DNA of 64,000 bases. Source: Escherichia coli (GTDB lineage: Bacteria; Pseudomonadota; Gammaproteobacteria; Enterobacterales; Enterobacteriaceae). Positions 7,453-54,562 of the stretch are shown here, one piece after another (position 1 is the stretch's first letter; each line of letters opens with the position of its first letter). The translations under genes were made by a program, and so were the position numbers. Below the pieces are notes generated by a model. The model made no database searches. It had not been told where the DNA came from and saw only the letters and a list, made by a program, of their open reading frames with translations. The stretch lies in the NCBI RefSeq assembly GCF_003334385.1, contig NZ_QOWN01000005.1. One strand, written 5' to 3'.

Positions 7453-9177
7453 TCAGGTTCTCTCCGTTTTGCTTAACCACATTTCATCCATTCCGCCCCC
7501 GCGAATCTGCATCGGGTAGACGTGCTCGCTGCCATCGACGGTAACATCAACAAACACCAGGCGATTATTGCGCACCTGTTCCAGCGCCTCGCTAAGTTTG
7601 CTTTCCAGCTCATGCGGATGAGAAATCTGGATCCCGACATGCCCATAGGCTTCCGCCAGACGGACGAAATCGGGTAGCGATTGCATATAAGATTGTGAAT
7701 GACGGCCGGAATAGATCATGTCCTGCCACTGCTTCACCATCCCCAGATAGCGGTTATTGAGATTCACCACCAGTACGGGCAACTCGTATTGCAACGCGGT
7801 AGACAGTTCCTGGATGTTCATCTGAATACTGCCGTCGCCAGTGACGCAAACCACGGTTTCTTCTGGCAACGCCATTTTGACGCCCAGTGCCGCAGGTAAA
7901 CCAAAACCCATCGTGCCGAGGCCACCGGAATTGATCCAGCGACGCGGTTTGTCGAATGGATAATAAAGTGCAGCAAACATCTGGTGCTGCCCGACATCGG
8001 ACGTCACGTAAGCGTCTCCCTTCGTCAACCGCCAAAGAGTCTCGATCACCGCCTGCGGTTTAATCTTTTCACTGTGAGTGTCATATTTCAGGCACTGACG
8101 AGCGCGCCACTGTTCAATTTGCTGCCACCAGTCGCGGATCTCATCCAGTGGTTGATGGGCGGATTCTTGCGACAAGAGTTCAAGCATTTGTTCGAGGACC
8201 TGGCGAGCATCCCCCACAATCGGGATATCCGCAGTCACGGTTTTAGAAATGGAAGTAGGATCAATATCGATATGCAGAACAGTGGCATTTGGGCAGTACT
8301 TTGCCAGATTGTTCGTCGTTCGGTCATCAAATCGTACCCCGACGGCGAAAATCACATCCGCGTTATGCATCGTCATATTGGCTTCGTAGGTACCGTGCAT
8401 TCCCAGCATGCCCAGTGCCTGACGATGCGTTGCCGGAAACGCCCCCAGCCCCATCAATGAGCAAACAACGGGCAGATTCAACGCCTCCACCGTTTCTTTC
8501 AACTGCTGATGGCAGCCCGCCGTGATTGCCCCACCGCCTACGTAGACAACCGGTTTTTTTGCCGCTACCAGCGTTTGCAGAGCACGCTTAATTTGCCCTT
8601 TATGTCCGGTAGTAGTGGGATTGTAAGAACGCATACTGACCGACTCCGGCCAGACATAGGGTAATTTGTTCGCCGGATTAAGAATATCTTTCGGTAAATC
8701 AACGACTACTGGTCCTGGGCGACCACTTGCCGCCAGCCAGAAAGCCTTTTTCAGCACCTGCGGAATGTCTTCCGTTTGCTTAACCAGAAAACTGTGTTTA
8801 ACCACCGGTCGCGAAATCCCCACCATGTCGCACTCCTGAAAGGCATCGTAACCTATCAACGAGGTCGCTACCTGCCCGGAAAGGACAACTAATGGAATGG
8901 AATCCATATAAGCGGTGGCGATGCCAGTAATCGCATTGGTCGCCCCTGGACCCGACGTTACCAGCACGACGCCGACTTCCCCGGTCGCGCGCGCCAGGCC
9001 ATCGGCCATATGCACCGCCGCCTGCTCATGACGAACTAATACATGATCAATACCACCCACGGTATGCAATGCATCATAAATATCAAGGACTGCGCCTCCG
9101 GGATAACCGAATACTTGTTTAACGCCCTGATCGATAAGCGATCGGACGACCATCTCGGCTCCAGACAACATCTCCAT
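7453..9177 (-). CDS. ilvI: Acetolactate synthase III large subunit
   Basis: ORF track frame 7453..9267; 574-aa protein from [28 protein letters not shown]; TPP-binding motif GDGS visible. Confidence 0.93.
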
Positions 9178-9494
9178 GGCCTGCCTCACTGTTTGACGGA
9201 AAAAATGTGTAAAACACATTAACCGTCCGATCTTGCTTAAGCAATTGGCAGCCAGAGACATAAACACGGGGTAATAAGAATAAACAGGAGGAAAGGTGAA
9301 AAGAAACGATAAAATCCTCCATTACAGAGGATTAAATTGATAATAAATCGGCTGAATCCCACAACTTACAGCAATTTCTCTATTTTTTTAATTAATCCTA
9401 AAATAGAGAGCCCACACATTCAGAATAAAATTCTACATTCAATAAAAAATGCAGAATAAACCAGACATTCATGTCTGACCTATTCTGCAATCAG
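9178..9494 (-). promoter_or_regulatory. ilvIH promoter/upstream control region with Lrp-type AT-rich sites
   Basis: AT-rich non-coding spacer upstream of ilvI; repeated motif gcagaata at 9421-9429, 9452-9460 and inverted at 9481-9489; cagaataaaattctac resembles Lrp consensus; site assignment from established knowledge. Confidence 0.5.
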
Positions 9495-10439
9495 TTAGCG
9501 TTTGCAAATTGAGACTAATTGCTCTTCCATCCACTGATGGCCTTTATCGCGCCCGGCAGCTTCATGCCAGGAGAGATAACAGGTTCTGCTGTTTTGTTTT
9601 AACGGCAGCGGTAATACCTGTAATTCTAAGGATTCAGCGAACTCTTCAGCCAGCCAACGCGGCGCAATAGCGACCAAATGCGTTTGCGACACCACGCTAA
9701 GTACGCTCATCATTGCCATGCCCTGATACGCGATACTGGCTTGCTTATCTACCGTGTCATACCAAGGTTGACTAAATGACGCGAAACGATCGAGCGAAAC
9801 CGCCGCATGTTGTTCGTTATAAACATCATGTTTCAGTAACGGGCCCTTAATTGTTGGATGATTTTTGCTGGCTACCAGCACCATTTCATCTTTAAATAAT
9901 GGTACGCTGGTAAATTCAGGACGATGGAAGTCTTCATAACTAATCACAAACTCCGTTTCCTGATAACGCAGCTGATGTTCAGTGTTCTGATTTAATGAAG
10001 ACTTGAACATAACATGTATATTTGGCGCAATCTGCTCAATGTGATTATAAATCTGCGAGGTCAGAATGCTGTCTAACGGGCTGCAAACACAAAGATGAAA
10101 TACACGTTCACTGCTCGCGGGTTCAAAACCTGAACCAGGCAATTCATTTTGTACTAGTTGCAATGCCTGACGAACTGAACCAAAAAGTTGAAATGCGCGA
10201 GCAGTCGGTTGAATACCACGGCCATAACGAACAAAAAGCTCGTCATTAAACATCACCTTCAGGCGTGCAACAGCGTTACTGACCGCAGGTTGCGACATTC
10301 CCAGAACATGAGCGGCACGAGTAATGTTTTGCTCCTGCATCACGGCATCGAAAACGGTTAATAAGTTGAGATCGACCATGCGTAGCTGTGGTTTGCTTAA
10401 CTCCGCCGTCTCTGGATGATCTGTTTGTACCTCTGGCAT
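9495..10439 (-). CDS. leuO: LysR-family transcriptional regulator LeuO
   Basis: ORF track frame 9495..10616; 314-aa protein from [33 protein letters not shown] (LysR HTH). Confidence 0.9.
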
Positions 10440-11098
10440 ACTTAACTCCACTGTCACACTTAACTCCCTTTCCCTTATTGGAATGCAGAGAAATAATCCT
10501 GAAGAATATGATTTATCATGCATATAAAATAAGAAAAAGCAAAATGAGTAAAATTCGGAAAACATAAAGATACGGGTTCTGATAAAAACAGAATCCATTG
10601 CCGTGGAATGAGTCATTTACCACAGCATAATAATCCATAATATTTTTGTTGCGAAAACAATCTAATCATAACTACCGCGAATACTCAATCATCTACAAAA
10701 TGGATTAAATGTGCTTATTTAATAATTAATTTATATATTTAATGCATTAATTCTTAACATTAATTGATCAATAATATTCACCAAATCAATATCAAAAAAA
10801 ATCGCAAAACATATAATTCAATACAAATCATCAGGATAGGTTTTGCAACGCGTGCATTTTGTCCCCTTTTTCCTCGTTGATTAGATGCAAAAATTTATGC
10901 TGAAATATGTCAACCGATGAAAAGCGTCGGTAGTTAAGCAGAAATTAATATCGCTTACTTTAACCACCGCAGCACAATTAGCTAATTTTACGGATGCAGA
11001 ACTCACGCTGGCGGGACGTTTTTATTGCGTCAGGGTTGACATCCGTTTTTGTATCCAGTAACTCTAAAAGCATATCGCATTCATCTGGAGCTGATTTA
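10440..11098. promoter_or_regulatory. leuO-leuL divergent intergenic region, strongly AT-rich (probable H-NS-bound silencing/promoter-relay region)
   Basis: 659-bp non-coding block; 10680-10860 is almost pure A/T (ttaataattaatttatatatttaatgcattaattcttaacattaattgatcaataatattc); role inferred from established knowledge. Confidence 0.5.
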
Positions 11099-11185
11099 AT
11101 GACTCACATCGTTCGCTTTATCGGTCTACTACTACTAAACGCATCTTCTTTGCGCGGTAGACGAGTGAGCGGCATCCAGCATTAA
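11099..11185 (+). CDS. leuL: leu operon leader peptide (28 aa) with four consecutive Leu codons
   Basis: ATG ACT CAC ATC GTT CGC TTT ATC GGT CTA CTA CTA CTA AAC ... = [28 protein letters not shown], stop TAA 11183-11185. Confidence 0.9.
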
Positions 11186-11208
11186 GCCAGCACGCAGTCA
11201 AACAAAAA

Positions 11209-11236
11209 ACCCGCGCCATTGCGCGGGTTTTTTTAT
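11209..11236 (+). terminator. leu attenuator intrinsic terminator
   Basis: acccgcgc-catt-gcgcgggt hairpin followed by T7 run, between leuL and leuA. Confidence 0.8.
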
Positions 11237-11277
11237 GCCCGAAGCGAGGCGCTCTAAAAGAGACAAGGACCCAAACC

Positions 11278-13940
<2,663 letters not shown>

Positions 13941-27989: not shown

Positions 27990-28415
27990 GTAACACCTGA
28001 TGCGACGCTGACGCGTCTTATCTGGCCTACACGCTGCGATTTTGTAGGCCGGATAAGCAAAGCGCATCCGGCATTCAACGCCTGATGCGACGCTGGCGCG
28101 TCTTATCAGGCCTACGCGCTGCGATTTTGTAGGCCGGATAAGCAAAGCGCATCCGGCATTCAACGCCTGATGCGACGCTGGCGCGTCTTATCAGGCCTAC
28201 GCGCTGCGATTTTGTAGGCCGGATAAGCAAAGCGCATCCGGCATTCAACGCCTGATGCGACGCTGGCGCGTCTTATCAGGCCTACGCGCTGCGATTTTGT
28301 AGGCCGGATAAGCAAAGCGCATCCGGCATTCAACGCCTGATGCGACGCTGGCGCGTCTTATCAGGCCTACACGCTGCGATTTTGTAGGCCGGATAAGCAA
28401 AGCGCATCCGGCACG
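27990..28415. repeat. Tandem array of five ~85-bp BIME units (paired inverted REP sequences) between araA and araD
   Basis: Unit boundaries about 27995/28080/28165/28250/28335; units 2-4 are identical 85-mers (gcctgatgcgacgctggcgcgtcttatcaggcctacgcgctgcgattttgtaggccggataagcaaagcgcatccggcattcaac), units 1 and 5 carry a few substitutions. Confidence 0.9.
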
Positions 28416-51804: not shown

Positions 51805-52575
51805 TTAAATGACTTTGCGAAGATTTTCAGCAAATGCGGCGATCTGTTCTTCGCCGTCGCCTTCAATCACGATGCGCTGACGTTCGCGCTGTTTCGGCGC
51901 GGCAACCTGTTGTTCTGACCAGGCTGCCTCTGCGTTAAAACCAATATCCGCCGCCGACCATACCTGGACGGGCTTTTTCGCCGCGCCGAGAATGGCTTTC
52001 ATCGAAGGAATTTGTGGGGAATTGATATCAGTGGAAACAGCAACAACCGCAGGCAGCGGAATGCTTAAGGTTTCGGTTTCATCTTCCAGTTCGCGCTCAA
52101 CGGTGAGGGTATCTGCAGTCAGGGAGATAATTTTGCTGACGCCGTTAACTGCCGGAATATTGAGGATTTCGCCTACCAGCAAACCAACCTGCTGGGCATA
52201 AAGGTCGGAAGAACCATCGCCACAGAGGATCAAATCAAAGCCTGCTTTCTGGGCGGCTGCAGCCAGTGCGCTCGCCGTTTGTTGCGGCAGTGCCTGCTCG
52301 AACTGGTCATCAATTACCACAATCAGTTCATCCGGGCCGCGCGATAACACATCTTTACGCCCTTTGGCGTTGGTCAGGGCTTTACCGCCCACACTTAAGG
52401 CTGTCACCTGCGCCTCTGCTGCCTGTTGCTTTAGCTGGCAAGCCGCTTCAATAGCGTTGAGATCGTATTGGCTTATTTTGGCATCGGCTTTGCTGAAGTC
52501 TAATGAACCATCAGCATTATTGACCGCAATATCCTGTTCATCAGGCACGCACTTATAGCAAGTAATAATCTTCAT
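51805..52575 (-). CDS. fixA: Electron transfer flavoprotein beta-subunit homologue FixA
   Basis: ORF track frame 51805..52638; 256-aa protein from [27 protein letters not shown]. Confidence 0.92.

Positions 52576-54562
<1,987 letters not shown>

Follow-up and report, generated by a model that had tools for sequence, protein, structure and literature searches.

A conserved AT-rich trough in the leuO-leuL spacer of Escherichia coli, a region known for H-NS silencing

The spacer between leuO and the leucine operon is among the best-known H-NS-silenced regulatory regions of enterobacteria, and as such it is not new. In Salmonella, a 72-bp AT-rich element is said to be the H-NS nucleation site of the promoter relay, reportedly from the work of Chen, Fang and Wu between 1998 and 2005 and of the Bossi laboratory between 2019 and 2024. 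A defined H-NS nucleation region has been placed upstream of leuO in this organism, where transcription or supercoiling coming from upstream relieves the silencing more than 10-fold (PMC6797219, PMC10981669), and silencing of leuO by H-NS is reported for both Salmonella and E. coli. In E. coli the gene is silent in laboratory conditions owing to H-NS and StpA, and is derepressed in hns (stpA) mutants (PMC5025477, PMC3950696); it has at least two promoters, one of which, P2, is activated by BglJ-RcsB, an activation described for E. coli, and LeuO is autoregulated (PMC5025477, PMC3950696, PMC6698644). The relay running from ilvIH through leuO to leuABCD has been summarised (PMC4770239, PMC4264507), and the spacer holding the ilvIH promoter is best known as an Lrp-activated promoter (PMC10127797).

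The bgl and proU loci and the casA-cas3 spacer are likewise divergent or upstream regions of high AT content, where H-NS binds and LeuO, BglJ-RcsB or SlyA act as counter-silencers, and the casA-cas3 spacer (29.5% GC) carries a LeuO palindrome near-identical to the one considered below. Unlike these, leuO is a core-genome gene with an amino-acid biosynthesis operon on either side, and its product is itself the H-NS antagonist, which gives rise to feedback loops. The leuL/leuO region is also one of the E. coli 'promoter islands' of the Ozoline group, with H-NS in all datasets and dense -10-like hexamers; its flanks are conserved, syntenic core genes, and it has defined functional promoters.

Location and base composition of the spacer

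We analysed a stretch of 64,000 nucleotides of E. coli DNA, hereafter the window; the position, composition, duplex instability, motif clustering, cross-genus composition and promoter blocks given below were computed in this work. The earlier note had described a 659-bp AT-rich island between the divergent leuO and leuL, and its coordinates proved exact: in both the RefSeq annotation and the list of open reading frames, the spacer at 10440-11098 is the 659 bp between the two genes, and it has 32.8% GC against 52.9% for the window. The neighbouring features are the following:

7453-9177, minus strand: ilvI (RefSeq annotation and list of open reading frames), with ilvH below it
9178-9494: ilvI-leuO spacer, 35.6% GC, containing the ilvIH promoter region
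9296-9340, plus strand: small open reading frame yabR, inside the ilvI-leuO spacer
9450-9489, minus strand: leuO terminator hairpin, inside the same spacer
9495-10439, minus strand: leuO, a LysR-type regulator of 314 aa, 45.7% GC, second lowest among the genes of the window
10715-10790: AT core of the island, with a 29-bp A/T run, the least stable duplex and many TTAAT/TpA steps
11085-11234, plus strand: leader/attenuator of the leucine operon (Rfam RF00512; score 145.8 bits, gathering score 50), including leuL
11099-11185, plus strand: leuL, leader peptide of 28 residues, rich in Leu codons
11278-12849, plus strand: leuA (RefSeq annotation and list of open reading frames)

Gene order and orientation are those expected of the ilvIH-leuO-leuLABCD relay unit, with leuLABCD divergent from leuO and leuO in tandem upstream of ilvIH. 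The arrangement is the same in Salmonella Typhimurium, where the spacer measures 656 bp instead of 659 bp, with 33.7% GC instead of 32.8%, and the 100-bp AT minimum is equally far from leuO.

Over 5,501 bp around the spacer the sequence is K-12-like, with one mismatch to MG1655, at position 10642 and thus inside the spacer, which corresponds to MG1655 83709-84367 (in this part of the window, the MG1655 coordinate equals 94807 minus the window coordinate); the 659 bp are 100% identical in strain PI7. In its first 28 kb the window shows only about 7 single-base differences from MG1655, which are scattered; the two sequences part at 28201-28257, in the araD/araA spacer, and the source, judged by its sequence, is therefore a K-12-like strain but not MG1655.

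Two details of the annotation deserve mention. The 14-codon yabR is annotated in K-12 and carries a pseudogene or 'too short' (39 nt) flag in three other E. coli strains. Moreover, the leuO frame is open for 59 codons upstream of the annotated ATG (10440-10616, minus strand), giving an open reading frame of 373 aa, which accounts for over-long LeuO models in databases (373 aa in Shigella, 355 aa in an ENA record). On the leuO strand, GGAGTTAAGT is present twice, 18 nt apart, at 10440-10467; the repeat is kept in Salmonella and Citrobacter koseri, and since an in-frame GTG comes after its upstream copy, translation of LeuO could begin at that codon, 6 codons earlier.

As for composition, the island stands out from the whole window (67% AT against 47%; z of about -4.6 in GC for 659-bp windows, with a standard deviation of 4.4%), and the lowest-GC stretch of the 64 kb falls in it or overlaps it at 659, 181, 100 and 60 bp alike. 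The 100-bp minimum is 15% GC at 10716-10815, the 60-bp minimum is 10% at 10719-10778, and the longest of the window's pure A/T runs, at 29 bp, is 10715-10743. The block 10680-10860 had been called nearly pure A/T, and this was overstated: with 22.7% GC its AT content is 77%, and 90% is attained only at about 10719-10778. The description of leuO as flanked on both sides by AT-rich DNA holds for composition, with 35.6% GC in the 9178-9494 spacer as a whole and 31.2% in its leuO-proximal part, 9341-9494. The latter, just downstream of leuO, has the lowest GC of the 28 annotated intergenic regions of at least 50 bp, among which the island is the longest and ties for second-lowest GC.

Duplex stability was calculated from nearest-neighbour stacking energies; on this scale the least stable duplexes of the window lie at 10714-10743 (30 bp), 10715-10764 (50 bp) and 10703-10802 (100 bp), with z of about +5. 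That stability should be lowest at 10715-10764 is compatible with coupling of the three relay promoters by supercoiling.

The sole GATC (Dam site) of the island, at 10766-10769, lies within the AT core in TTGATCAAT, where the other four genera have TTTATCA. Elsewhere in the window, the second most AT-rich stretch, about 52450-53108 (33% GC over 659 bp), is probably the caiT/fixA divergent spacer, the mapping to MG1655 being approximate beyond about 28.2 kb. Further AT-rich spots of low stability were observed at 35787-35836 and 36334-36627, near yabQ/rluA and djlA/yabP, the latter spacer having 37.8% GC, and the most AT-rich gene is yabP (43.3% GC).

H-NS occupancy, promoters and regulator sites

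Six matches, with up to two mismatches, to the high-affinity H-NS 10-mer, which we take to be tCG(t/a)T(a/t)AATT, are clustered within 71 bp at 10701-10771, and none with up to one mismatch was found in the island. Across the window the motif hardly exceeds chance (183 matches, 163 +/- 13 expected), and the local cluster therefore mostly reflects AT content.

Occupancy, silencing and counter-silencing are taken here from the literature. In Table 1 of PMC3661553 the leuL/leuO 'promoter island' 83898_426 is bound by H-NS 'according to all studies' (Grainger, Kahramanoglou, Oshima), and Table 2 of PMC5797941 gives leuO as H-NS-associated in G, K and O, i.e. in the same three ChIP datasets; PMC1636352 is a further source on H-NS occupancy of this DNA. 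In these published summary tables, which are not at base resolution, the spacer is thus bound in three independent datasets, the opposite of the absence from ChIP data by which the earlier note would have been refuted. The control of leuO by H-NS and the promoter relay, to which the earlier note had also appealed, is established in published work (PMC5025477, PMC6797219, PMC10981669, PMC4770239).

We infer the bases of nucleation and the individual factor sites. The AT core at 10715-10790 may well be the H-NS nucleation zone and the positional orthologue of the AT-rich silencer of Salmonella; the assignment goes by position because the site was mapped in Salmonella and the core sequence is only 68% conserved. 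The published and candidate sites within the spacer are listed here:

10440-10783: 344-bp fragment shifted by SlyA in EMSA (PMC5797941), placed by locating primers TC52/TC51 in the window
10484-10909: published promoter island 83898_426 (leuL/leuO; PMC3661553, Table 1), with coordinates mapped to the window
10503-10530, minus strand: leuO-proximal block AGAATATGATTTATCATGCATATAAAAT, conserved in five genera
10555-10562, minus strand: candidate BglJ-RcsB box core TTTTCCGA, matching wwTTCykA, inside the block 10557-10569 conserved in five genera
10627-10655, minus strand: sigma-70-like TTCGCA-17-TATTAT, candidate distal leuO promoter on weak evidence
10739-10750 and 10731-10742: predicted SlyA sites, inside the AT core (PMC5797941)
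10774-10792: candidate core of LeuO site I, ATATTCACCAAATCAATAT, of the form ATATTCA-N5-TCAATAT
10969-10986: 18-bp block GCAGCACAATTAGCTAAT, containing the 12-bp palindrome AATTAGCTAATT, about 95 bp upstream of the putative leuL promoter start
11036-11064, plus strand: putative leuL (leuLABCD) promoter, TTGACA at 11036-11041, a 17-bp spacer and TAACTC at 11059-11064, conserved in five genera

From its conservation and spacing, the TTGACA-17-TAACTC element would be the leu promoter, and the block at 10503-10530 is likely the core promoter region of leuO. The candidate BglJ-RcsB box, combined with the published motif and its 57-bp distance (PMC3950696), would put the start of P2 near 10500. The element at 10774-10792 is identical at 15 of 19 positions to ATATTCATACTGTGAATAT, the perfect 7-N5-7 palindrome of the casA-cas3 spacer, and may be the core of LeuO site I, in agreement with PMC6698644, where a 19-bp palindrome almost identical to that of the casA-cas3 spacer is assigned to LeuO site I of leuO.

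The region may also be looked at as a 'promoter island' in the strict sense, that is AT-rich DNA crowded with spurious promoter-like signals, where H-NS would suppress pervasive transcription rather than leuO specifically. The locus is catalogued as such, and -10-like hexamers number 2.58 per 100 bp, which is 6.8-fold the density of the window (0.38). On the other hand, the scan for full sigma-70 -35/-10 consensus sites over 2.3 kb gave 2 sites, below the 6.2 found in shuffles, although the leu promoter, with TAACTC as its -10, escaped the same scan, which is uninformative for the island; furthermore, specific regulators act at the spacer according to the literature, and discrete blocks are conserved across genera. 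We regard this explanation as rather improbable, and it is compatible with specific silencing of leuO rather than exclusive of it.

The 18-bp block GCAGCACAATTAGCTAAT is the only strongly conserved block in the island interior (10571-11030), and 10 of its 18 positions do not vary among five genera. It departs from the Lrp consensus by 2 mismatches, a consensus that is weak on its positive control, since it recovered just two positions in the known Lrp-bound ilvIH promoter; because of this poor performance the Lrp-like matches in the island are weak evidence. LeuO binds leuLABCD promoter DNA, and 2-isopropylmalate enhances the binding (PMC12494820). The block might bind Lrp, or LeuO in a 2-isopropylmalate-responsive manner, and thereby couple the control of leuLABCD and leuO. 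We hold it doubtful, though worth stating, that it is a regulator site with no assignment in the literature consulted and, separately, that the AT core is selected for composition and duplex instability instead of sequence.

A-tracts, TpA steps and predicted curvature

The earlier note had seen multiple A-tracts, typical of H-NS sites, in the block 10680-10860, and intrinsically curved DNA. The first of these observations is valid for the island as a whole, which has 37 AnTm tracts where composition predicts about 25, and 20 homopolymer runs where it predicts about 11 (z of about 3), the latter clustered next to leuO (10526-10588); in 10680-10860, instead, homopolymer runs equal expectation (5). 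This block is dominated by TTAAT/TpA, with 11.6 TpA per 100 bp where the window has 4.1, a 2.9-fold density; overall, TpA is 2.2-2.9 times as dense as in the window, yet slightly under the prediction from mononucleotide composition. In fact, protein-binding-microarray work, summarised in PMC8476142, indicates that H-NS prefers TpA steps over A-tracts.

Curvature was predicted as a wedge-model trajectory with Bolshoy/Trifonov parameters, and the values are indicative only. The island averaged 14.4 degrees against 10.1 for the window, and none of its peaks was in the top 15 of the window; the AT core (10700-10780) gave 10-16 degrees, near the window mean of about 10. Intrinsic curvature of the core is thus weakly supported by the model, and it is the flank at 10821-11040 that is predicted to be curved: a fragment of 200 bp at 10841-11040, lying between core and leu promoter, ranks third for curvature in the whole window (end-to-end/contour ratio 0.73; mean 0.937, standard deviation 0.043). 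The 10-11 bp periodicity of AA/TT is modest, being reached in 2.4% of the shuffled island sequences and in 1.6% of the shuffled core sequences (range 1.6-3%, uncorrected).

These data bear on a different explanation, in which the main property of the island would be intrinsic curvature from phased A-tracts with an architectural role, for instance as a bend that activates the leu promoter from upstream, H-NS binding being secondary. The island-wide excess of A-tracts, the AA/TT periodicity and the curved fragment just upstream of the leu promoter speak for it, but the core is near average in both predicted bend and homopolymer runs, the five A-runs in 10526-10562 start 7-9 bp apart (10526, 10534, 10541, 10550, 10559) and not 10.5, the wedge-model values are only indicative, and the p-values of the periodicity are uncorrected. 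We consider it improbable, and slightly more so than the promoter-island account.

Conservation of the spacer and its part in leuO regulation

The island was found in 5,400 of 5,426 complete E. coli genomes, with coverage of at least 80% in 5,379 and identity of 90-100%; 3 of the 5,404 island matches sit on records labelled as plasmids. In E. coli FDAARGOS_943 (L003:3288-4161, equivalent to about 9300-11098 of the window) an IS1A replaces leuO and about 500 bp of the island, so that only the last 161 bp (window 10938-11098) are left beside leuL; this is a natural leuO deletion strain.

Orthologous loci were found through LeuO homologues in Salmonella, Citrobacter koseri, Klebsiella, Lelliottia and Yokenella, and all five show the same leuB-leuA-leuL / leuO-ilvI-ilvH-cra order. 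In the four non-E. coli loci that were measured the spacer is 613-659 bp long with 33.7-36.9% GC, and its 100-bp minimum (17-24% GC) occupies the same relative position as in E. coli (15%). The alignment comprised E. coli and four of the loci, Lelliottia being omitted; in it, strong conservation of sequence is confined to 10503-10530, 10557-10569, 10969-10986 and 11032-11098, the last covering the leu promoter and leader. The aligned AT core has average identity (68%), yet it is 22-33% GC in every genus aligned. With Salmonella the core is only partly alignable, and neither the E. coli candidate LeuO palindrome at 10774-10792 nor the single GATC is conserved there. The core has thus kept its composition rather than its sequence, as expected if H-NS recognised it by indirect (shape) readout.

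The same comparison tells against a neutral origin of the AT-richness, whether from horizontal acquisition of leuO or from mutation bias in an unconstrained spacer, with no function of its own. Such an origin would agree with the low GC of leuO, with the call of the locus as a genomic island by GIST, and with the divergence of the spacer in three diverged E. coli strains, which is 3-5%, with differences spread throughout, against 1-3% in the flanking genes. The AT trough has nevertheless kept its length, position and depth in five syntenic genera despite sequence turnover, and silencer and nucleation experiments have been published; the neutral origin is, in our opinion, very unlikely. Least credible of all is an unannotated gene for a small protein or small RNA: several open reading frames of 30-60 aa are present and RefSeq records lack annotation under the match, but these regions show indels and low identity across genera, on which ground a hidden open reading frame was rejected, the island contains no terminator-like site, and an Rfam search at permissive E-value over 8800-11600 gave only the Leu leader and chance hits, those inside 10440-11084 being merely microRNA hits at chance level.

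Direct and inverted repeats in the island are two-copy, short and AT-rich. One 31-nt pair, 10536-10566 and 10783-10813 (77% identity), was treated as chance and is not conserved across genera.

Taken with the published work, our preferred reading, to which we assign a probability of about 0.9, is that the island serves the divergent leuO and leuLABCD as a common regulatory region, silenced for leuO by H-NS and StpA, with nucleation in the AT core. Under this reading, the flexible, easily melted and TpA-rich core (about 10700-10800) would be bound with high affinity by H-NS and its paralogue StpA, which would oligomerise from there across the leuO promoters (about 10500-10650) and keep leuO silent in ordinary growth. 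Relief could come by two routes: through BglJ-RcsB, LeuO itself, SlyA and LrhA bound at specific sites inside the island, or through negative supercoiling and transcription from neighbouring promoters, which would constitute the 'promoter relay' from ilvIH through leuO to leuLABCD. The leuL-proximal 70 bp would serve as the leu promoter, followed by the leucine attenuator.

What this analysis adds to a well-described locus is modest, namely an AT trough conserved in composition and position, and not in sequence, across five enterobacterial genera. The product of leuO is a master H-NS antagonist, with genes for CRISPR-Cas, virulence, efflux and acid stress under its control, and the silencing of leuO through this region is a textbook example of how H-NS nucleates and spreads, of counter-silencing and of supercoiling-mediated coupling of promoters.
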